This document shows, piece by piece, positions 10,699 through 54,491 of a DNA stretch of 64,000 nt (position 1 is its first letter; each line of letters begins with the position of its first letter). The position numbers were made by a program, and so were the translations under genes. Source of the stretch: Amoebophrya sp. A120. Taxonomy: Eukaryota > Protista > Dinoflagellata. The DNA lies in NCBI GenBank assembly GCA_905178155.1, contig CAJINV010000001.1, positions 16,306,142-16,370,141 on the forward strand, written 5' to 3'. The notes under the pieces are model-generated. The model was not told the origin of the DNA and did not search any database. It saw only the letters and a list, made by a program, of their open reading frames with translations.

Positions 10699-11430
10699 TC
10701 TGATCAAGCAATGATCTGCTTCTCTCTGCGAAAATTAAGCAGCTTAATGACAAAAGCCGAAAACAAAGCGACCTCATTTTAAGCTTCTTTCCTTGCATTC
10801 GTCGAAGCACAACTCTTGGCACATTTTGTACCACCAGCGCATTCTCGCAAACGACAAGTAAAATCAGATTGAGATGAGTATTGATACTGTGGGTCTCGCT
10901 TCGTAACGCAGAGTTTCTACCGGCGACCCGCGTTCTTATCGCTTTCTTCGACAAATCGGTGATGTTGAACGTAGTGCAATCAACAATTAGTCCGTCAAGG
11001 TCTCTATATCTATCAATTTCTATTTCAATTTGTTGACGTCGTCATCATCTGGTATCGTGTACTGCCATTCGTTTTGCTCCGTCGCGTCTTCTAGAATCTT
11101 ACTTTTTTCCTCGTGAAAGTGGTAGATAGCACGTGGCAGAAGAACGTCCGTCGTCTTGGGTCGTATCATGATGCCGTAATCGTCGTACCCACTTTTCTCC
11201 CAAAGCAACACTCATTGCCGGTATCGCTCCGAAAGTGAATCGTGGTCCAGCTAGTTTTTATGATCGTTACCTCATCATGTTGATCGCCTCCTCTCATTAC
11301 TAGATTCGTTGAAACTGAAAGAAATCTTTTTTTGTTCTGGGAAAAAACAAAAAGTTGAAAATAAAGGCGCAAATACCACGAAGCATCGATTTGATGTCGA
11401 GTTGCGGCTGAGCAGACGAAAGCCGCCACT

Positions 11431-12776
11431 ATGAAACTGCGAATTTTTCCGCGGTCCCGCCCCGGGCGGCTGAACTTCGCCATTTTCCAGTGGATCACCT
11501 ACATGCAACCATGGTTGATCACGCAAACGCATGCGTGCATCCCCTGGTGCAGCCTGAACCAGGTGCACAAGTTCTGGATGGATACCATGTGGATGAAGTC
11601 ACTGCTCATGGACAGCCCGGTATTTTGAATCGTGTTATTTCTTTCAACGTTAGCTTCTACATAACCTTCTCCTTCGGTCTACTCGCATTCTTTGTACGTA
11701 CTCACAGTAAACATCGATAAACTATGTGAACCTGTTGTAGAAGTGACAAAATACAGTAAAGTCACACTTGATCTCAAATCCATCTCGATTATTATCCCAG
11801 TTATTTTTATAAGCTGCGGGGGGCGGGGGTCCCCGGGGGTCTGCGGGGGTCTGCGGGGCTCGATTCATTCTAAAGGAGAAAAAAACAAAAGATNTTCTGC
11901 AAAAAAGTTCTCGAATGCAAAACGCGAATCAAAAAGGACCCCCGCAGACCCCCGCGCTGCGGAAACTGCCCCCCTTATAAAAAAGGCTGTTATCCATCGT
12001 GCGACAGAGCCTGAAGGGTGGTTCTGGTTCGTTTCGGATGGTGGAGAGTTTACAGCGGGACGCATTGAAGGCGATGATCAACGGGTTTATCGAGCGAAGC
12101 ATCGACCCCTACGACCCCGGCGACGGTTTTGCCACCATGTTCGTGTACGACATCAAGAACGACTACTCGAGTTACGACTGCTTTCTGATGGTGAACTGGG
12201 GCGAGAAGCGGAGCGGCCTCCGGATCGGTGACCTGCGCGCCAACGAGCTGGGCACCCACGGCTCGCTCGCCCGCGTGTGGAACTACCCCCCCGGCGAGGA
12301 AAACTGTCTCACCTGGGTCACGGACCTGAGCACCTTCAACACCGTGCAGGCCGCCGTGACCGCCGCAAACAATGTGCGAAACGACAACTGGGCCTTCTTT
12401 CGCAAAGTAGCCAGTTACACGAAAGCCGCAATCGGATCCGCTGCAGTCTTGACCATGTCATCCATCCCACTCGAGTATGTGTCTGTCCTTCTTCCTTTTT
12501 GCTCTGCATGCTACTTGTTTTCAGCGAAACATACTAAATTCGGTACAAACAAAATCCCAGTAGACAATCTTCGATGCTCCAAAATTGAATAATCCCAGAC
12601 GCGGTGTGAACTTACCGAGCTACGTGAAACTGGAGGTGGTGGACACGCGACTGATTCAGACCACCTTCAGCGGCAACGGACCTAGTGGAGCCTACCGCAT
12701 GATGGACAACCTTCCGGAGGACGAGCGAATTCTCATTTTGGAAGACATCGAGAAGCAAGAGCTCTGGGACGTATAG
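11431..12776 (+). CDS. conserved-looking hypothetical protein (3 exons), possibly mitochondrial
   Basis: Strong codon bias. Exon 11431-11619, GT-AG intron 11620-12007, exon from 12008, second intron (probably 12475-12598, GTATGT donor, phase 2), last exon ends 12776. Basic N-terminus. Function not recognised. Confidence 0.6.
11804..11983. mobile_element. MITE-like inverted-repeat element inside an intron
   Basis: TTTTTATAAG (11804-11813) / CTTATAAAAA (11974-11983) terminal inverted repeats, plus internal GGGGGTCTGCGGGGGTC / GACCCCCGCAGACCCCC inverted arms around an A-rich core that contains an N. Confidence 0.55.
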
Positions 12777-39734: not shown

Positions 39735-40681
39735 CGAGACACTTCGCGAGCCGGCGAAATTCCTACTGCGCCAGCGGTAAGGCAGAACGTGGGAGAATTC
39801 GTTGGTTGCGGCCACACGACTGCTAGTGCCCGAGCAACGCGTTCGGAAGTGAACGATAACCGATTCGCGGAGTGGATTTACGTTTATGGTAAAGGAGTGC
39901 CAGCATCAGTAAGTCGTATGCGCATTGAGCACGCGTGGAGTGCTCGGCGAGGGAGGACGCGGCGGGCGGCAGTACCATGAGAAGGCGGGTAGATTGATTC
40001 GGAACCCTGCGGGAGTGGCAAAAATTGCGAGCCTTCTTAAGAATACTATAACGTTTTCTTGTTGGTGGATGGTGATGGCAGGGTCCTATCTAGTCAAGAA
40101 GCGGAGCACCGCGGAGGCAACTACGCTGGTGCTATGCGGTAACGATCCGGTAAAGACGGCGCCACGTTCAGATGGTATTGTTGCTGTCTGAACGTGTACA
40201 CGAAAAAAAAAAGAATCCACGCCAGACTGACAAGAGAAATGCACTTCGACGGTTCTGGAAGCACTGGACGAAGAAACATCTCGGAAGCAGTTGTAAAAAA
40301 AGTGCACAGAAGAGGAGAAGTGATTTCGATCAAATGCACGAGTCACGTAGACGGCATAATTTTCTGTATTGTATTCAACTGACATCTTGCGCCACTTCGT
40401 CTTCTATTTGAGGAAAAAGGACGTGTCTTGATGTTGCTTTTGTGAATCGCGATCTAGATCCCCAATGAGATCACGTGATGAAAACGATCCCGATGTAAGC
40501 ACCTTCTTTGCTCCAGTTTTTCATTGCGACCAGTTCTTCTCAGGCACTGTTGTTGTGAGTTTGTTTCACATGACGAAGATCGTTGTTGTGCGTGAACAAA
40601 TTCTTTTTCGAAATAGTGTTTTTCATAGAAATTTCCCCTATTGCCAATGGTTCTTCTTCCGTACCTGAAGTGGTGAAAGAG

Positions 40682-43486: not shown

Positions 43487-44387
43487 GCACTACCTTGTCC
43501 TTGGCATGGATTTCTTAGAAAAACAAACCACGAGAATTGGCAACGGTTGTGTGGAAATATGTGTGCTTCAAGAAGATCGACGCTATGCATTATTTCCGTC
43601 TTATTTCCTACATTACGCTAGTGATGATCATTTTCGTTTTACCGCCACGGTTCTGCCGCCTCCGCTAGCAGTTCTCGCAAGTACACTCTTTTGTTCTCCT
43701 CCGCCAAGCTACACGCAAACTTTCACTACAAACATGTTGATCGCGAGAAGAGTGTCTGTGGACAAGAACGCCAGCAGCTTCATCAAAGAGGCTTTCGCAC
43801 AACTGACAGTTGAGCTGGAAACGTCAAAATAGACTCAAATCGTGAAAGCATCAGAGAAGTCGGGAGAGAGAATGCGAGGCTTTACCCGTGGCCCAGCGCA
43901 ATTTCTTACCAGCAAACTTTCAGATCGGGAACTTCTCATATGATCCTGTACTCGCTGAAGTAGCTGGCTAAATGTAATAGCGGTTGGTTGCGGTGCAGGA
44001 CTAGATTGATGACATTAACCTCGGTAAGCCCCGAGACAAGCGTGGCTTCTGTATGCTAGCTTGGCCGCGCCGGTGACGGAGTGCTTTACAAAAGTCACGA
44101 GCCGCTGCTGCCCCGACCGAGCCGCTCCTCGCTTCCAAGAAGACGTTTGGATTTTTACAGCTGTTCTTCCAGTCCGTGGACCGGCACGCTGCGTAAGACG
44201 GTCTCCTGTCGCTTCTTCACGTCAACACCGCATAATTGAGGCCACGGCAACATCAGCGGGTTTTGTGCGACATCTGTTGGGTGCGAGTTCTAAGTTCTAA
44301 GTTTGATAAAAGATAAGTCCTCGTGTCCGTCCGTCTTGCTTCTACCGTCTTCTGCACGGCGTTTTGGATCCGTCCCGGCCCTGCACC

Positions 44388-47300
44388 ATGGCACCCCAAC
44401 TCGAGGTTCCGTCGTCCGCCTTTTTTCCGGGACAACAACAGATTACACCGATTAACGATAAATGCGACGGTGAAAACACCGAGGACGAGGACATGGACCA
44501 TACGCCCGCGAAGCAACTGTCGGCCGGTATTGCCCCGCAGGTGGGGATGCGAATGGTAGGCACGATTGTGCGGGAGATCTTTCACAAGGTTAAGGACAAG
44601 GATGGCAACGTGATCCGGGTCGGGGACAGCAAGGGGTACGGATTCATTCGTCCGCATAAGCAACTCAGCCTGGAGAACTTCCTCGGGCACAAAACAGGGG
44701 GTCGCTTCACCAACTTTGTCAGTGTGTCACCGGATTTTATTGCGGAACTGTCGGAGTTGTCGAGGGAGTTCAAATCCAAGAATGACCTGTTTGTGCACAA
44801 GCGGTCCGTCGTTGAGGGCGACTGGGGTGTGGGCTGTGTGGCCGAATTCACTGTTGCACCGGGCCGGGAGGAGGGCAAGCTTGAGGCGCGCATGGTGCAA
44901 ATCCTGGCCGTTGATCCCCGCTGCCCGACTCTGGATGCGCTGGCGAAGAAGGTTCAGTGGCTCGAGGGGCAGTTAAAGTTGTCCAACAAAAAATCCAACG
45001 ACGCGGTGGCGACCGCTGAAGCCGCAAGGGTGACCTCGGCGCAGGCAGCGGCCAAAGTGCATCAGGTCGAAACCTCCACCAGCCAGCGCCTGGGCAAGCT
45101 CGAAGCCGGGGTAGAGGAGTCCGCACAGGTGGCGCGCGACACGAAGAGAGACGTTGAGGCGGTGAAAAAGGAGGTTGTTACCCAGCAGTCGACCCTGGCG
45201 GAGATCCTGTTGCATGTCAAGCAGAACTCCGCTGCATCGGCCCAGCCGGCGAAGCGCAATGAGGATGAGGATGAGGGTATCGCTAGCGCTCCTTCGTGCG
45301 AACAGTCTTCATCTTCGTGTTCATCTTCGTCTTCATCATCACAGCTCTGTCTCAACAACTTAAATTCCCACATCTCATCATCACAGGTCATTCCGGCGAT
45401 GACAAGAGACGTAAGATGGCCGGCGCTGGAGCTGCTGAAGCGACAAACCCATAGCAGCAGAGCGGGTGATCAGGTTGCTGCACCACGGCGGCTTTTTGCT
45501 GGTGCTGCAGCCGGAGATGATGAGTTTGATGAAAATCTTGATGTGAACAATTTTGACAACGAGGATTTTGAACAACAGCAACCAGATGACAAAGAATCAT
45601 CTTGTTTGTCCTGTCGACTGTCGGAACTGTCGGTAGCCGTACAGTCAGATTTTGTTGATAGCCCGCAAAACGAAAACCAAACCACGAACGGCAATCCTTA
45701 CATCTGTGAAACGAGTGATTTGAGCCAGCAGCCAGCCTCTGCAATTGTTGAAAGGGCCTCTGCAGCTGGTCCGTCGCACACCAGGCAGTTGGTGTCTCAC
45801 GCGTTCAACGCTTTGTGTTCACTAGGGCGTCACGACTCTGTTATCGCGGTGTCAGATACCTCTCCAAAAACACCTGATCGACGCTGGCCCGCGACATCTA
45901 CCGTCCCCGCAGTGAACGAGGCACAGTGCGACCCGTTTGTGACACCGCCCCCGCGCACAAGGACTATCTGGGACCCAGGCATCAGAACAGCCGAAAAGGA
46001 TACAACAGCTCGCAACTCTCGCCGGATCAGACGGAGCAGGAGGAAGGGCTTCTTCGCAAACATCATCACGGTCAACTTTCAGGGGAAACACCAGTCCAAG
46101 CAGCGCGAGCAAATACTCCAGCACTTTTCCGAAGTCCATAGCTTGGGCGGGCCCCACATCGACGCGATACTTGGGACGGAGTTCTCGTACGATGCGAATG
46201 CTGCTGATGGACCGCCCGACAGCTTCTCCACTACCCTAGACACGGACGGGAGATGGTTGACCCTGTGGATTTGTGGCGCGGCGATAATAGTATACAACAA
46301 GCAGTGGATCAAGCAGATTCTTCGTGGCAACTTCCGGGTACATTCACAGCCACGGATTATAGCACTGCGCCTCCCGTTCTTAGCCCTTTGCAGCGCGTAC
46401 GCCCCAGCTGATGGAAGTAAGGCCGGCCAGGGAGTGTGTTTGGCGTTTGACATCTTCCTTGGCAACCTCGAGATTGTACTTGGCAAAATCCGTAAGCCGC
46501 TACGTACCGGATCGACCCCACTGCTCGTGAAGCTGAATACCGCAGCGAAACCCCCTGGGCTTCCAGACCCTACGTTCGACGCCTCGGCCAACTCGTCGCT
46601 CCGCTGCCCAGTTTTTGTTGGGGGTGACAATCTTGGCACCGTTGGGTCTCCGGACTCCAGGAATAGACGAGGCTATTGTGGGGGACAGACAGCCGGCCAG
46701 TTTGGGCTTGATGATACGAATGGGCGCGGCGTTGAAGTTTTGCGATTTGGCGATGACTACGGGCTTGCAAATGTCAATGTGCTTTACGACCACCGGGAAT
46801 CGAAGAAATTTGTTCAGTGGCGTCCGAGTTTGCTCTGGCATGCGCAGGATCGGGCAACGCATTACTCCAAGCGGATTCTCAGGTGGCGGGAGCTCGATCA
46901 GTTCTACGTAACGAGCTGCGACGTTCCGAGCATCACTGTTTGCGCCACCGTTACGTCGCCGCTGGGTCTTGACCACCGTCACAAGTTTCTCCGCGCATTC
47001 ATCGAGTTTTCTTATCAGCGGAGGAACATCGACCGTAGGGCGAAACAGGACCGGACGGAGGTTGACGCTTCTGCACCGTTGTGGCGTGCCACCCCTTCAG
47101 CAAAACACCAGTTTTCCGCCGCTGTTGTGCAGGCGTTGTGCCCAGAACCGGACTCGGCCGCAGACGTTAGCTCCCCTGTTGCCGACCCGACCCCGCAGAC
47201 TCCGCTTGATATCCCCATATCCCGCATCCCAGAGGCTCTTGTTGCTGCGCGGGGTATTTTAGCGGGGTCCGCACAGCAGGAGCTGAACCGCTACAACCGG

Positions 47301-50300
47301 AGCCACGACTACAAGAAACGGAGACGCTTCGACCTGCGCATCAAGATCCTACGCAAGGAAGTTCGGCGCCTCGGCGCCGCCCTCGACCCAGACGATGACG
47401 CAGCGGGCGCAGTTTATCAGGAAAAGTGTGAGCTTTTAGCCAGTGTCATTGCAGAGCGTGTGGAATTCCGCAAGACCCAGTCCTCCGACTTCAACACGGA
47501 CTACCACACCAGGGCGCAGCGCACGCTGAAGCGGAGGCTTGCAAAGGGTGTTGATTTCGATCCTGAGACTGCGGCGAAGCACTTCCAAGCCGTCAGTGTC
47601 TCGCCCGGGGTTCCTAACGTTGAGCTTGTTCGCAGCGCTGTGCAGCCCCTTGACGACACCAGCAGGGAAACACTTTTAAAGGAGTTCTCCATCGAGGAGT
47701 GCATGTCCGCCGCCAAGCGTCGCCGCAACAGCCTACAAGTAGACGTCGTTGGCGATTCCATTGCGCTGTACAAAGCTTTGAACGCCGGGGCCTGGGCAGT
47801 GATTGTCCGGATCCTGAACCACCACCGGCTGACCAACTTTGTGGGGCTCCTTGGCGAAAACCCGCAGGACCAGCAAGTTCTTGCCGCCACTGTCCGGCTG
47901 CTCTACAAGGGAAAAGGCGCCGAGACTAGTCTTGATAATTTTCGTGGCATCGTGAATACCTCGATTATTGTTAAAGTGCTGACGGCTGTTTTAACAGATC
48001 GGCTTGATGCCTGCCTTCGTTCCTGTGGTTTTCTTTCTGGGCGCCAGCATGGGTTTCGCAGGCACTACCAAGTGGACGAAGCGGTTTTTTTGGCGCGTCG
48101 GGCGTGTGAGGATGCCCTGCGTGTTTTCGGGAAGGGGAGCAGTGTCGGCAATTTGTCGCTGCTGCTCCTTCTTGACATCAGGAAAGCCTACCCCAGTTTC
48201 CCGTGGAAGATCTGGAAGGGAATCATCCGCGGGCTCGGTGTTGAGGACTCTTTTTTCGACTCCCTCTTCAGCATCGTCCACCGCCGAACTAGCTACCAGG
48301 TTCTCTGTGGTGACAAACCAAGCGACCCGTTTTTTTTAGACAGCGGCTTCGGAGAGGGACAGATAAGCTCTCCCAGTTCGTACTCCCTCGCCTACGAGTG
48401 TGTTCTACGTGTTGTGCGACAAGTGTTGACCGAGAGGCTTTCCAGATCTTCGTCGCTGCTTCTTTGGTCCCCGCGTGCGCCGTTTGCTTTCGTTCCAGGA
48501 GTGAAGCCGGGTACGGGGTTGCGATCGGTATTTGACCTCCTACACCCGGGGTCGGCCTCCCTTGTCGTCGACAAGATGACCGAGTGGGAATTCGCCGACG
48601 ATACGCTGATCCCGGCCCTCCTTCTACATTGTCTGATAAATTTTTTCGGTTGGGAAGCAACTGCGGATGAGGCTGCTGTAGCGGCGAACCGGGGGAAGTT
48701 TGATTTTGTCCTTGCGTCAAACCCAGAAGTCTCTGCTTTCGTCCGGTATCTCGGGGCGTTTCTGGATCGCCGCGAGGATTCCTCGCGCAGAATTGGAAAG
48801 ATGCTTGCGGCACTTGGCGAAGTTGACTGTGTCCCTGCCGCGGGGGACACGGTCACTGATGTGCGGATAAACATCATGTCGCGGGTGCGCAGCAGGGGGC
48901 TCTTTGCGATTGGGACGAGGGAGATTACGCAACAGGAAATAAAATCGCATCAGGTCATCGAGAATCAGGCTCTTCTGCGCCTTGCCGGCCAACCGCGTTG
49001 GTCGTTGCGCCGCTTCCACCTGCCGCTGGCCCGCCTTCGTCGGTGGTACCACATGGACCCAGCGTGCGCGATGATCCGCTACTCACAGTGTTCGCACGTC
49101 GGCCACATAGTGCGGTCCGATCCTGGTCGACTCTCTCGGAAAGCGTTTTTTGGAATGTTGACCTTCGGCCTGCCATGTCTTGAAGACCACTACTTGCACA
49201 GGCGGACCGGGCAGATTTCTCTCTGGGACAACGTGCGTGATTCCTTGAAGCTTGTATGCGGTGAGCGGTCTGACACGCAATACCTGACCCTGATGCAGTC
49301 CCGGCCGCATTTCAACGCCTTGCTTTATGAGCTTCGCATTTTTTTGACGATTGAAGACTACCTCACTGATGACGGCGTCACTGATCAGCAGCTTGCCGAC
49401 GCTCGGAAGTGGTGGGCTGAGCACTTTGCGAAGCGCCAGAACTCGCTGCCGATTGATGTCAATTGCCGCTCTGGATTTTCGTGGTTTAGCCAAGACGGCC
49501 GATCATTCACCGATGAAGTGCTGGCCAAGATTCATGTCGAGACTACTGTTCCCGGCTCTACCAACTTCTCGCGGTGCAGAAGATGCAGTGTTGATGCCTG
49601 CGACAAGTGGGACACACGTTTTACCCCGAAGTTCCTGAACGACTACGCCTGCACGCCCTACATTCCTTCCCCCCGACCTGAGACACGGTGGAAGACTGCC
49701 GAGTTCCGCGATATCAGGCAAGTTGTTGGGCATGACAGTGGTGTCTCCATTCATTGCGAGAACCCGGCGCCCGCGGTTGGGGATGCCAGTGGTGCTGACC
49801 TGTCCTTCTTCCGCCGCGATGACATCGTGAACACCGTCTACGAGAAAGTGCGCGCGGTGCACGCTGAAAAGCCTCCTGACCCCCCGAAGAAGTTGCCGCC
49901 GCTCACGAAGTTAGTGCAGTCCATCGAAGTTGAGCAGTTCCGTGACGTATTGTTCCCCCCCACAGACCAGTCTGGCGACGCATCTTCCTCCAACCTCCGC
50001 TTTGCCTCAAGCACCCCTCCGGACGACCATCTGCAGCTGACGAGGTACCTTGAGGAGCAGCATGCTGCGATTTGCCGTGAGATTGAGGAGTATCCGTTTT
50101 TCATCACTCATCGCTACGACCATGGGAGTAAAGCGATCGCATCGGTTCGCTGCGTTTGCCAGGAGTGCCGCGACTTTGTCCTGCGCAAGCGAGCGAAGGG
50201 GCCACGGGGTAGAGCTGCGTCCGAGTCCTCTTCCGTTTCGATTTCGGAGTCTGCAGATGGCGATGGTGTTGACGCAGGTAACGAGTCTGATGATGAATTT

Positions 50301-50999
50301 GTGTTGGAGATAGGGCGTGGCGCTGGGGATGCTCTTGCTCTGTCCCCCGACCATGAGGTTCCGGAAGACGATGACGAAGACCCGACGACCCTCAAGATGC
50401 TTGTCCCCGTTGATCAGCAGCGGTTGTTCGCCAATTTGAAGACTGCGTTCCGACACATGCGATACAAGAAGCAGAAGCAGGCAGAGGCGGACTTCAGTGC
50501 ATTAATTCCGGCCCCCCCCAAGAAACCCAAGGAAACTACGACCAGTGCGAAACCTGCGCGGGCCCTCGACGTTGACGCCCCTCCGCAGCGGACCAAGAAG
50601 CTGATGCCGTCGCAAGCCCTTGACTCGGAGCTGCATCCTGAGCAGCGCGTCGTCGATGTTTCTGCCGGCAGCGCCCACACTGTCGACGAGGACCCGCCCA
50701 TGCAGCTCCCCAAGGGCATCACGTGGTGCACGTCCATGCCTGGAGCTGCGTCGCGTGCTTTTGGCGGGGTGCTTCTCGTTAGGGTGACGAACGCGAAGCT
50801 GCCCGATGGGTCTACGCACCACGTATCCCGACACATCGATCCAGCCGCGTACGGGAACAGTGCGTCGCTCGCGATTGAAGCGGCAATTGCACTACGAACC
50901 CAGATCACACTTGACCCTGCCCCCTTCATTGCGAAAACGAAGCGGATGCGAAAGCCGAAAAAGAAGAAAAGTGGTGGTGGTGTGGACGTTCGTAGGTAG
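44388..50999 (+). CDS. retrotransposon polyprotein: cold-shock domain - coiled coil - AP endonuclease - reverse transcriptase - split Zn finger - AP2-like domain
   Basis: CSD KGYGFI/DLFVH (~44547-44905). APE NIITVNFQG, SAYAP, VGGDN, LDQF, LDH (~46050-47000). RT LLYKGKG..NFRGI, QHGFR, LLDIRKAY, FADD (48591), YLG (48747). CxCxxC...F.....RH. C-terminal LPKGITW...YG...A...AIALR. Confidence 0.92.
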   Translation: MAPQLEVPSSAFFPGQQQITPINDKCDGENTEDEDMDHTPAKQLSAGIAPQVGMRMVGTIVREIFHKVKDKDGNVIRVGDSKGYGFIRPHKQLSLENFLGHKTGGRFTNFVSVSPDFIAELSELSREFKSKNDLFVHKRSVVEGDWGVGCVAEFTVAPGREEGKLEARMVQILAVDPRCPTLDALAKKVQWLEGQLKLSNKKSNDAVATAEAARVTSAQAAAKVHQVETSTSQRLGKLEAGVEESAQVARDTKRDVEAVKKEVVTQQSTLAEILLHVKQNSAASAQPAKRNEDEDEGIASAPSCEQSSSSCSSSSSSSQLCLNNLNSHISSSQVIPAMTRDVRWPALELLKRQTHSSRAGDQVAAPRRLFAGAAAGDDEFDENLDVNNFDNEDFEQQQPDDKESSCLSCRLSELSVAVQSDFVDSPQNENQTTNGNPYICETSDLSQQPASAIVERASAAGPSHTRQLVSHAFNALCSLGRHDSVIAVSDTSPKTPDRRWPATSTVPAVNEAQCDPFVTPPPRTRTIWDPGIRTAEKDTTARNSRRIRRSRRKGFFANIITVNFQGKHQSKQREQILQHFSEVHSLGGPHIDAILGTEFSYDANAADGPPDSFSTTLDTDGRWLTLWICGAAIIVYNKQWIKQILRGNFRVHSQPRIIALRLPFLALCSAYAPADGSKAGQGVCLAFDIFLGNLEIVLGKIRKPLRTGSTPLLVKLNTAAKPPGLPDPTFDASANSSLRCPVFVGGDNLGTVGSPDSRNRRGYCGGQTAGQFGLDDTNGRGVEVLRFGDDYGLANVNVLYDHRESKKFVQWRPSLLWHAQDRATHYSKRILRWRELDQFYVTSCDVPSITVCATVTSPLGLDHRHKFLRAFIEFSYQRRNIDRRAKQDRTEVDASAPLWRATPSAKHQFSAAVVQALCPEPDSAADVSSPVADPTPQTPLDIPISRIPEALVAARGILAGSAQQELNRYNRSHDYKKRRRFDLRIKILRKEVRRLGAALDPDDDAAGAVYQEKCELLASVIAERVEFRKTQSSDFNTDYHTRAQRTLKRRLAKGVDFDPETAAKHFQAVSVSPGVPNVELVRSAVQPLDDTSRETLLKEFSIEECMSAAKRRRNSLQVDVVGDSIALYKALNAGAWAVIVRILNHHRLTNFVGLLGENPQDQQVLAATVRLLYKGKGAETSLDNFRGIVNTSIIVKVLTAVLTDRLDACLRSCGFLSGRQHGFRRHYQVDEAVFLARRACEDALRVFGKGSSVGNLSLLLLLDIRKAYPSFPWKIWKGIIRGLGVEDSFFDSLFSIVHRRTSYQVLCGDKPSDPFFLDSGFGEGQISSPSSYSLAYECVLRVVRQVLTERLSRSSSLLLWSPRAPFAFVPGVKPGTGLRSVFDLLHPGSASLVVDKMTEWEFADDTLIPALLLHCLINFFGWEATADEAAVAANRGKFDFVLASNPEVSAFVRYLGAFLDRREDSSRRIGKMLAALGEVDCVPAAGDTVTDVRINIMSRVRSRGLFAIGTREITQQEIKSHQVIENQALLRLAGQPRWSLRRFHLPLARLRRWYHMDPACAMIRYSQCSHVGHIVRSDPGRLSRKAFFGMLTFGLPCLEDHYLHRRTGQISLWDNVRDSLKLVCGERSDTQYLTLMQSRPHFNALLYELRIFLTIEDYLTDDGVTDQQLADARKWWAEHFAKRQNSLPIDVNCRSGFSWFSQDGRSFTDEVLAKIHVETTVPGSTNFSRCRRCSVDACDKWDTRFTPKFLNDYACTPYIPSPRPETRWKTAEFRDIRQVVGHDSGVSIHCENPAPAVGDASGADLSFFRRDDIVNTVYEKVRAVHAEKPPDPPKKLPPLTKLVQSIEVEQFRDVLFPPTDQSGDASSSNLRFASSTPPDDHLQLTRYLEEQHAAICREIEEYPFFITHRYDHGSKAIASVRCVCQECRDFVLRKRAKGPRGRAASESSSVSISESADGDGVDAGNESDDEFVLEIGRGAGDALALSPDHEVPEDDDEDPTTLKMLVPVDQQRLFANLKTAFRHMRYKKQKQAEADFSALIPAPPKKPKETTTSAKPARALDVDAPPQRTKKLMPSQALDSELHPEQRVVDVSAGSAHTVDEDPPMQLPKGITWCTSMPGAASRAFGGVLLVRVTNAKLPDGSTHHVSRHIDPAAYGNSASLAIEAAIALRTQITLDPAPFIAKTKRMRKPKKKKSGGGVDVRR

Positions 51000-52100
51000 T
51001 GTGTACGTTAGTAGCTAGCGTTGTAGCCTGGGGGAGTGCGTTTTTTAGTTAGAAGTCCGCTGATGTTTCTGCCTGTGTGCAGTTGCACTTGAAAAAACTA
51101 TTTGCAGCTACAAAAATAATAAAAAACACAAAAAAAAAACCGTAACTTTCTAGTAGTGCAGTCTCTCTGCCTCTCTACAGCAAGGTAAAAGTCAAACTAT
51201 CTGTGTTTGGCTTTCTTTTTTCTTTTACCTTTCTTTTTCTCAGTTGAGAGCTTTGTGAGTCCGCAACACGATGGTGTGCTGATGAGTGACGAGTGACGTC
51301 GTGTTTTGTCTCTCTTGGTAACACCGTTGTTGATGATCTTATGATGCTATTTATTACACGAATGCTTGGTTTAAAGTTTTACCTGATTTCCATTCTAAAC
51401 TTGGTCGCCGGGAAGGGACCGAGGTACGTGTTAAAGGCTTCGCGCTTTGTAGTTAAAGTCTTACAAGCTCTGAGGATCCATCGTGCTCGCCTTGTCCCGA
51501 TGCTATGGTGGAAAAACAGACTCACTAACGAGAGCGAAAATCCAAAAAAGCTGTTGTTTTCCATGATCTCACACGTATCGCCTTGTCCCCGTCTAAAACT
51601 GCAGTTTTGATAGTTCAGGTAGTAGAAAGTGCGTGAGTTTTTTTTCTGCGAAAAGACCAATCCTACGTAGACGGGAACGTGACGACTTCGACAAATCACG
51701 ACTTGTAGCCGGTTTGAGGGTTTTCACATGACGAAGACCATTATTCTGACCTATTGCCGTGTAGTTTTTTTTTTGATTGAAATCCAAAATCTGAAAGCTT
51801 AGTTTTGTTTTAGCTCCCCCAGGCCCGCTCCTCGGAGCATAGTTTTTTCAAACCTTTCCAATGTAGCTCCTCGGAGCATAGTCTTCTCGCCCATTCCAGC
51901 TCAGCTCTTCGGAGCCTATTCTTTTAGTCCTCTCTAGTCTGCAAAAGGGTTTAGTTAATTCTGTTTCAGCTCCAAACTTCTGACAAACGCAAATCTGTTT
52001 TACGGCCGACGTGGTGGTTAGGATTGCCTGACTGCTGCGTTGAGCCCAGCTTGTGTGACGGCGTCACGTGGGCTGACACCTCTGATCTGATCTGATCATC
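51000..52100 (+). ncRNA. structured 3' UTR / RNA domain of the retrotransposon
   Basis: Several long-range inverted complements (11-13 bp, perfect) and local hairpins whose G-U pairs only form on the + strand. Confidence 0.6.
51827..51920 (+). repeat. three tandem GCTC(C/T)TCGGAGC tetraloop-hairpin repeats, period 38-39 nt
   Basis: GCTCCTCGGAGCATAGT at 51827 and 51866; GCTCTTCGGAGCCTATT at 51904. Confidence 0.85.
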
Positions 52101-52296
52101 GGCGCTTGTTTCTTTCAGGCCACTTCTGAGTACTTGTGCAGCTAGAACTGCAAAAACTCTATTCGGAGCACCTAGACACTCGGCTTGCTGCAAGTGAGGA
52201 GAACAGGAAATTAGGCAAAGGACCTGCTAAGAAGCAGCTGCGCGGTTGTGTCCCCGAATAAGTAGACTCTCGTGGGCTGCCACCGCGTCGACGAAG

Positions 52297-54491
52297 ATGT
52301 CTTCGTTTCCTCGGAGGACAACCGGTGGGGTGCGGCGTTTCGCCGAGGATCCCAGTGCTATGGCACCGCCCGGCACGCGGCCCATTACCGTCGAGAACGC
52401 ATTCCCGGTCTTCTCCAGTGCGGAAGGATTACCACTCGACCGCGTCACTGTATCTTCGAACTCATTGCTTTTTGTGTTCAAGGCAAAAAGGGGAGATTCT
52501 CAAAAAGATTAGCGGTAGATTCACAACAGAGACCGAACCATCGAGATCGGCCGAATCTTTCTTCAATCTTTTTACAAGGCCGTATCAAAAAATTCAGGTA
52601 AGCAATACGGTTTTCGAGTTTTGGAGTTACGAGCAGCTGGAGCCGCTGAGCGCCGCCGTACTTGCGCGCCGGGTTGCCGCCCTGCAGGAGAAACTCCGCG
52701 ACTGTGGTTTCGTAGACCAGGGCGCGCCGCGAAGCCGCCAGACGGCTGATCTGACGCGATACCTGATCGTGAAACAGGCATTTCTCGCCTGTGAGGCCAA
52801 CCAAGTGAAAGCCACCGCTCGGGAAATCGCCAAGATGCTCCGCAGGTTCGGGTGTCCCGAGGCGTTTGTGATCGCCGAGACGCGGACACCGACCCCCGGT
52901 GTGAGCCAATCACAGCAACAACTTGGAGAACTTCAAGTGCCGCAGAGCCCGCGGTCCGCAAGATCTGATTCACCCGACGGGCATCGGGAGCATTTCACAC
53001 CAACGGGTAGCAAGAGCATTACTTTGTGAGGATTTATTCGTCGCACCTCTACATGGATATGGACATGCAAAAGTTGCAATTCCGTCCGAAGCGTGAGCGC
53101 AGGACAGCAGCTGTGGCTGTTTTTCTCCGGAAACGTTTTTTTCGAAAAATGCACATTAAATTCTAAATTAGGTGCTTATGGCGATCGGCGGGACGACATG
53201 AAATACGGCCACATGGAGGATACGAGGATGGAAGACGGGTTGGCGCGCGTGGTCGGCCACGGAAAGCGGCATGTTGAGGTTCCGGACCACATAAGACCCA
53301 AGGCCCGCTCCGTGGACGTGCAAGAGGAGAGAACAGGGTAAGGGCTTAGCTGGCAATCGATTGTGAATCAATTTTTCCACGAAATGCACGACTTAGAGTC
53401 CTCTCTACTTGCGTTTTTTCATACTCTTGACATTAAGTTTTTGCAGTGCGTCTGCCTCCAGTAATCGAAAAATGTATCGCATGACAGACGCCTAAGTCAA
53501 GCACTGGGGCACGACGATGACGGTGCTGCGGGCTACCCTAAACTGCGCGATCCGTCACCAAGAAACAAGCGCGCGGATCCTGTTTTGCGCAACGCCTCGC
53601 ATTTCAACGGCTGCGTTCTTGATCCGGGCAGACCAGAAGATCTCATGCGATCGGTACTTGCTTTGCTTACTCAACATTTTTGTGCTTTCGAGATTATCAC
53701 GCCGCGTCAATGGCAGATCTCCGGTAACACAATCTTTGTAGCTATGCCGAACACTCCATTTTTCCTGAACAGCGCATGAACTCGCAGTATGCGGACGCGC
53801 CTGAGAAAGTGTTCGGCGCGAGGCTAACCAACTCCGAGCAGCGAAAGCGCTACCACGCGCCAAGACCTAGCGACTACGTTGTCTTTCCCGCTGGAGAACC
53901 ACTATCGGGAGACGTCATTACGGAGCAGTACTTGAAGTCATTTTCTCGAATGCATTTTTACGGCTGACAGTGCGTACTTTTATCTTCTCTTCCATCAACG
54001 TGCGCTCATCTTCATCAACATCATTTGTTTGGGCGGGCTTTTACTTCAGAATGTAAATTTTGTGAAGCTGCGCTCATGGATCACTGAAAGGTGCCATCGG
54101 ACCGGTGAAGTGCGAACTTGGAAGGCTCCGTACGACGATCGAGTGGCCGGAACAACAAAAAAGTAGTAAGCTTTTTTTGCAGCTTCTGCAATTGCTAGCG
54201 TGCACGAATACACATCTAGTGATTTGCATGCCTACTTAGTTATCGAAATAGACACAACACTGCTTGAAGAGCACTTACTGTCTCAGTCTTCGAGCTTGCT
54301 TTTCCCATGGATACAGGCGGGTCCAGATGGACGACCACGCTCACTGCCTCGGCGTGTTTGAGACGGACGGAATAAAAAACGAGGCTATACCCGGGACCGG
54401 CCACGGACGCAAGTACATCGACCGCGTGTTGGGTCCTCAGCTCAAAACTGAGCGCGGACATCTCGCTTCCTTCCGCCCGCACCGTGGTTAA
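52297..54491 (+). CDS. multi-exon hypothetical protein with GHG(K/R)(R/K)H/Y..DH-type repeats
   Basis: Phase-compatible GT-AG introns 52450-52597, 53007-53171 and 53338-53487; later junctions are less certain. GHGKRHVEVPDH and GHGRKYIDR repeats. Confidence 0.55.

Follow-up and report, generated by a model that had tools for sequence, protein, structure and literature searches.

In the 64,000-nt stretch of Amoebophrya sp. A120 DNA analyzed here (the window), we found a non-LTR retrotransposon with a 1098-nt 3′ untranslated region (UTR; 51000..52097; all features lie on the + strand). This UTR ends in two hairpins that are likely the site used by the reverse transcriptase (RT) of the element, and it is likely folded back by helices of long range; we regard this combined reading as evenly balanced between right and wrong. 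The original prediction had proposed a folded RNA domain of ~1 kb at 51026..51991, downstream of a retroelement open reading frame (ORF), and the pairings it named indeed sit within the 3′ UTR.

The host genes of the window are eukaryotic, all on the + strand and with GT-AG introns. The element has a single ORF of 2211 codons (44364..50999, first ATG at 44388) with no internal stop. Its 5′ junction lies approximately at 44310..44340, where a contig of the unique flank ends (44339) and a second copy begins (near 44326). That second copy, seen in the X1 DNA contigs, comprises the 5′ part only (44326-45797), is ~87% identical (53 differences in 416 nt) and is perhaps an internally deleted relative. 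The ORF encodes a reverse transcriptase (47661..48863; RVT_1, E 0.00095) with a FADD motif at residue 1410; all five PDB matches of this region were L1 ORF2p or RNA-directed DNA polymerase (E 0.018-0.57), and RVT_1 was also present in relatives of the ORF protein. An endonuclease/exonuclease/phosphatase domain of the APE type was recognized at 46044..47060 (Atlas score 0.95 to Exo_endo_phos clusters, recognition 3137); this region had no Pfam match, and its PDB profile search returned coiled-coil noise only. No long direct repeat (LTR) was found at the element. Judged by its sequence, the element is an APE-type non-LTR retrotransposon with endonuclease and reverse transcriptase, and non-LTR elements are reported from Amoebophrya genomes in PMC7789003.

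Two further regions of the ORF are weaker. A cold-shock-like region at the N terminus (44508..44945) matched Pfam CSD with an E of 0.014, below the cut-off; the N terminus of the relative P0013 looks similar, and P0005 matches residues 94-150. An AP2-like C-terminal region (50670..50960) is a lead only (Atlas 0.93 to a cluster in which AP2 makes up 15%; model pLDDT 41) and carries an LPxGI/L motif common to P0007, P0012 and P0016. If confirmed, cold-shock-like and AP2-like domains on one LINE ORF would be an unusual set. Among the best 10 of 150 ORF relatives checked, 8 carry a name, and all 8 come from Amoebophrya. Five Amoebophrya proteins (P0005, P0006, P0010, P0012 and P0013), annotated as unnamed or numbered gene models, are 35-61% identical to the ORF product across endonuclease/RT stretches. 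Viral contigs gave no match to two sequence patterns or to the RT, and bacterial and archaeal genomes gave no matches.

To define the 3′ end, the window copy was compared with two loci from a pattern scan, L001 and L002. L001 is identical to the window at 372 of 402 positions over 51696-52097, where its homology starts at 51696. L002 matches at 234/284 positions over 51799-52064, 100/135 over 51474-51607 and 35/38 at the end, and its tail is ~82% identical to that of the window. TCTGA repeats terminate all three copies, and the 3′ flanks are mutually unrelated. The repeat (TCTGA)3+TC at 52081..52097, common to L001 and L002, is thus the true 3′ end. The window copy showed no target-site duplication, and L001 has a candidate (11/12 match) 1.8 kb upstream; the 5′ ends are uncertain in both cases. 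The ORF upstream in L001 showed no match to the LINE proteins. The first 590 nt of L002 consist of GC-rich tandem and inverted repeats, probably a separate repeat family.

The X1 DNA contigs point to the same end. Their summed depth, a rough guide rather than a copy number, was 42-43 on both flanks and over most of the ORF, 364-650 over 50941-52041, 783-949 at 52048-52054 and again 42.5 beyond ~52100. This rise to about 20-fold reflects an excess of 5′-truncated copies, many of them 3′ only. Since depth and two other copies place the end of the element at 52097, the A-run at 51111-51139 lies inside it and is not the poly(A) end, as had been proposed. The depth climbs through many steps, starting at about 50400, without a sharp 5′ edge at 51026, and the 5′ arms of the pairings described below are missing from most copies. 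One could suppose that the 1.1-kb unit is a non-autonomous, SINE-like RNA family mobilized in trans, one version of which the LINE carries as its UTR. Indeed, up to 1.9 kb of noncoding sequence in L002 contains the pairings and no LINE ORF, and copies with the common tail diverge upstream at 51474, 51799, 51852 and 51980. A stepwise rise without a sharp edge is, however, what 5′ truncation would give, a search for a tRNA-like head found none, and there was no Rfam match; we consider this origin unlikely. Near-identical copies of 50798-51120 showed 3 differences, all outside the arms and too few to gauge constraint, and the single 151-nt X8 contig (51817-51968) has 1 change and 1 gap. A 12-nt motif occurs twice in the UTR (51488-51499 and 51579-51590, 91 nt apart) and recurs in the conserved block of L002, with an 11-nt match upstream in L001. 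A 27-nt match (85%) joins UTR positions 51722-51748 to 40564-40590, at the start of an upstream hydrolase ORF, and is probably due to chance (E about 1).

The best-supported structure lies just outside 51026..51991. Folding and the three-copy comparison both gave a terminal hairpin A of 19 bp with one bulged A (52004..52046) and a hairpin B of 13 bp stacked directly on it (52047..52075). The fold of 51974-52100 had a z score of -4.65, with none of 200 shuffles as good. Because 10 of the 32 pairs are G.U, the structure is strand specific (z of -4.4 on the + strand versus -1.6 on the opposite strand). Four of the 32 pairs vary among the three copies: one changes on both sides (A-U to G-C at 52048/52074 in hairpin B of L002), two go from U.G to C-G, and one position is U.G, U-A or a mismatch in the window, L001 and L002, respectively, the last being the single mismatch in hairpin B. 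The variants at 52048, 52052 and 52054 recur in the X1 contigs, together with a 52052 T>A whose partner position falls outside the listed rows; in these variant tables, a position without a listed variant is not equivalent to an invariant one. Thus, across three copies, this 3′-terminal stem-loop has been conserved and kept by compensatory change. By analogy with known elements, the twin hairpins at 52004-52075 (core 52004-52097) are likely the RT recognition site or handle. The recognition element originally placed within 51026..51991 is therefore better sought here, outside that region. In L002, the loop of hairpin B holds a 190-nt insertion (2700-2890) flanked by a 7-nt direct repeat, which may be a small mobile element or an introner-like insert.

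Upstream of the twin hairpins, three repeats of 38-39 nt (51827..51915) are each predicted to form a 4-bp hairpin with a YUCG loop (51827-38, 51866-77 and 51904-15). The hairpin sequence GCUC-YUCG-GAGC is present in all three repeats. Among the variants listed, it is the first base of the loop that changes (51831, 51870 and 51908), and none falls on the stems. UUCG loops are extra stable; the folding model gave hairpins 2 and 3 at p < 0.1. L002 also contains an internal (TCTGA)4 without hairpins (1981-2000) and a 20-nt unit in triplicate (2085-2190) similar to the tail repeat.

We then considered transcription. The X3 contigs are guessed to be RNA, as they show GT-AG joints. Over 51130-52033 they agree with the window allele at every letter apart from one additional T. 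Unspliced RNA-like contigs cover 50830-51159 and 51130-52033. Cover of the ORF body was little, and contigs of this kind show presence, not absence. RNA-like contigs from X3 and X4 start in the terminal core (52004) and continue into spliced host exons; these contigs may represent read-through or a leader donated by the tail. The host gene concerned (within 52004-53500 of the window) has introns at 52450-52597 and about 53006-53170 and its first ATG at 52297. The contigs document the presence of an unspliced UTR and of a bridge from tail to host gene rather than starts, ends or levels. The raw RNA data were uninformative, with a single read from each of the runs X9 and X10, less than 90% alike.

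All six long-range or local pairings of the original prediction were found where they had been placed. The helix called PK joins a 5′ arm that lies 26 nt past the stop codon (51026..51037) to a 3′ arm (51813..51824) that is unchanged in L001 and has 2 changes in L002. It is a perfect Watson-Crick helix of 11 bp (51026-36/51814-24), or 12 bp with one U.G, and this G-C helix is the strongest of all (-26.5 kcal/mol). PK does cross the two outer helices, H1 and H2. H1 is a bulged pairing between 51037..51056, found in the window only, and 51976..51991, which is invariant in three copies and marks the start of the high-copy terminal core. H2 is a perfect Watson-Crick helix of 13 bp between 51089..51101, which has a positional counterpart at 1837-1849 of L002, and 51839..51851, which differs at 5/13 positions in L002 and at 2/13 in L001. 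The 5′ arms of H3 and H4 together occupy 51129..51152, including an A10 run, and have analogues at 1865-1888 of L002. H3 (51129-40) pairs perfectly over 12 Watson-Crick bp with the T10 run at 51764..51775, a sequence kept in neither L001 nor L002, and H4 (51141-52) forms a bulged pairing with 51623..51633. H5 is a local hairpin (51182..51231) with 10 perfect Watson-Crick bp (51182-91/51222-31) in a 120-nt window of z -3.8.

Arms of this kind could also be terminal inverted repeats that bound nested DNA elements or introner-type introns, or the domain could be a ribozyme. Introners with inverted repeats are described for Amoebophrya genomes in PMC7789003, and H2 is in fact a perfect 13-bp inverted repeat. 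The arms, however, cross each other and have no flanking direct repeats, the RNA-like contigs remain unspliced over both covered stretches (again as presence, not absence), and the G.U pairs that make the terminal structure strand specific speak against a DNA-level repeat. The ribozyme-like character that had been suggested was not borne out, since an Rfam search gave 3 matches at E 2.8-4.1, none of them in the UTR and no family below 2.8. We hold these readings to be very improbable. A group II intron, considered for a GTGCG motif at 51036, was ruled out with no Rfam match.

We next asked how far the pairings exceed chance. Three perfect helices of at least 11 bp were observed versus 0.14 expected, and none of 500 dinucleotide shuffles had as many. 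Among real 966-nt tiles of the window, 3 of 131 had two such helices and none had three. With shuffles that preserve runs, three such helices arose in 12-14 of 1000 (3- to 5-let) and in 86 of 1000 (6-let); H2 and H3 depend partly on A/T runs, and H3 alone is near chance (14-15/150 shuffles). Elsewhere in the window, at 11110-12560, tiles contain 4-5 perfect helices of at least 10 bp, including an 18-bp inverted repeat (11834-11851/11937-11954). The fold of the whole region (51000-51995) reached -271.4 kcal/mol, better than all 20 shuffles, with a z of just -1.92. Such values are consistent with an ordinary stringent-type LINE tail, whose working parts are the terminal hairpins and repeat alone, the long-range pairings arising incidentally from A-rich and U-rich blocks in a long UTR.

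The folding model cannot choose among PK alone, the nested set and the full pseudoknot. In the nested-only ensemble, PK was formed at 0.998, H4 at 0.9 and H5 at 0.7, with H1, H2 and H3 at about 0; after removal of the PK 5′ arm, H2 rose to 0.82 and H3 to 0.72. When states were forced, PK gave -319.1 kcal/mol versus -313.8 for H1+H2+H3. All nested helices together, with the PK arms left free, came to -304.8, and PK would contribute a further -24.5 if loop penalties are disregarded. For an RNA of 1.1 kb, gaps of ~5 kcal/mol do not exceed the error of the model, so these states cannot be separated. The closeness of the two forced states, the exchange upon deletion of the PK arm (L002 shows a like exchange) and the RNA-like contig that runs from 52004 into spliced host exons would all fit a two-state switch, where PK excludes H1 and H2 and the state would decide how the 3′ end forms, how stable the RNA is or whether it reads through into the downstream host gene. 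PK and the nested helices can nevertheless coexist as a pseudoknot, the energy gaps carry little weight for the reason given, and no ligand or trigger has been identified, making a switch a poor candidate. Pairing would bring 52004 closer to the stop codon: the path between them counts 1004 links when unpaired, 51 via H1, 207 via PK and 243 via H2.

The other copies provided a more direct test of the long-range helices. For the 3′ arms named in the original prediction, a partner was sought upstream (3 arms in 2 copies). L001, which is apparently 5′ truncated and hence served as the control, had partners for none of the three arms; L002 had partners for two, H2 and PK. In L002, the H2 counterpart (H2′, 1837-1849/2454-2466) has 13 bp with one G.U, and each of the four altered bases within the helix is in a Watson-Crick pair. 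Its energy was -18.3 kcal/mol versus -10.2 for the next best site, a value reached in 2 and 5 of 1000 shuffles and in 0 of 72 real tiles. The partner lies 356 nt before a shared anchor, compared with 373 nt in the window. Each arm also prefers its own allele: the window arm scored -15.3 on its own partner and -11.9 on that of L002, and the L002 arm -18.3 on its own and -9.7 on the window. Folding of 1780-2930 of L002 gave H2′ followed by 1865-72/2363-70 (H3′) and 1877-88/2344-55 (H4′), at p 0.94-0.96, that is, the nested order of H2, H3 and H4 with different letters. Blocks defined by anchors, which were picked after H2′ had been seen, interacted at -19.2 in L002 (0/200 shuffles twice, 0/119 real AT-rich tiles) and at -17.4 in the window (1 and 4/200 shuffles, 2/119 tiles); crossed blocks gave -6.3 and -16.1, the latter with the L002 5′ block and the window 3′ block. 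As the upstream part of L002 aligns with the window no better than chance (score 78 versus 63.7 ± 8.8, best shuffle 90.5), the term compensatory rests here on position and not on aligned columns. In one X1 contig, of depth 78.8, the 3′ arm of H2 carries 4 changes, with the partner arm outside the view of the contig.

The PK partner in L002 (1048-1061/2432-2445) had an energy of -26.8, equaled in 3 and 0 of 1000 shuffles and in 1 of 72 tiles, and none of 1000 shuffles gave partners for both arms together. It is in the right order but stands 789 nt from H2′ versus 63 in the window, about 730 nt further. Because of this distance, the lack of a LINE ORF ahead of it and the (TCTGA)4 in between, it may belong to the flank. 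The 720-nt insertion between PK′ and H2′ is marked by no direct repeat beyond one 7-mer, and in a fold that includes the PK partner, H2′ is lost and PK′ is reduced to 7 bp. For H1, no partner was found in L002 (95/150 shuffles as good) or in L001. Tail windows at z of -2.5 or lower numbered 3/37 in the control L001 and 5/37 in L002; since the control still gives 3, single outliers are commoner than the shuffles imply.

Taken together, part of the proposed ~1-kb folded domain probably stands. L002 retains H2 with four double-sided changes and has nested analogues of H3 and H4; H2 is the strong case, PK is displaced, H1 is without a partner in both copies, and one copy only is informative. We find it fairly probable that H2 with its inner nested helices is real, put the conservation of PK slightly short of an even chance and regard H1 as doubtful. 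The fold-back architecture as such is probably real, on the basis of two copies. An ordinary stringent-type tail would account for the near-chance H3, the absence of H1 elsewhere, the outliers in the control and the loss of 5′ arms from most copies. It would explain less readily why two arms named beforehand find partners in L002, why H2′ is allele specific at a nearly equal distance and why the same nested order recurs in other letters, and we consider it rather unlikely. Should the long-range part fail, that ordinary stringent LINE tail would remain, in a little-studied lineage.

With the fold-back reading, a mechanism can be proposed. The ORF protein would bind the twin hairpins at the 3′ end of its RNA, and the (UCUGA)n repeat would prime reverse transcription at the nicked target. 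The long-range helices, if they form in cells, would place the RT handle close to the stop codon, so that new protein could be passed on to the tail of the very RNA that encodes it (cis preference), and/or the folded RNA could escape the decay that acts on long UTRs. In its fullest version, a conserved, kilobase-scale pseudoknotted 3′ UTR would clamp the RT hairpins beside the terminating ribosome, as a cis-preference device without a poly(A) handle, in a LINE family that also has cold-shock-like and AP2-like domains; this version as a whole is improbable. How L1 proteins choose their own RNA is called unknown in PMC4176376, and a pairing of the post-stop region with the tail would offer a direct test of cis preference, by breaking and repairing the helices. 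Our literature search, with most subscription journals and repeat databases outside its scope, found no kilobase-scale fold-back UTR in a non-LTR element, and a search on fold-back and decay turned up nothing pertinent.

A structured LINE tail as such is already known. Stringent LINEs bind to a stem-loop at the 3′ end (PMC4176376), and the tails of UnaL2 and ZfL2-1/-2 and of the CR1, RTE and Tad1 clades resemble the one described here (PMC4176376, PMC3747384): APE and RT domains come with a conserved 3′ stem-loop, a short tandem repeat replaces poly(A), and many copies are tail only. In contrast to these, the Amoebophrya tail has two long, stacked, G.U-rich hairpins and three YUCG hairpin repeats, and its 1.1-kb UTR contains predicted pairings that span 500-950 nt from beside the stop codon. 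R2 elements are rDNA specific and encode a restriction-like endonuclease. In Bombyx mori R2, both binding and target-primed reverse transcription require a two-stem-loop core and a single-stranded 3′ tail of the 3′ UTR (PMC11194090); the arrangement here is similar, with binding predicted. Unlike R2, our element encodes an APE-type domain, its three copies sit before unrelated 3′ flanks, and a fold-back on the kilobase scale is predicted. Finally, fold-back of a 3′ UTR suppresses nonsense-mediated decay of reporters in human cells, according to PMC2689704, where pairing draws the RNA 3′ end toward the stop codon, as it would here; unlike those reporters, the Amoebophrya UTR belongs to a natural retroelement.
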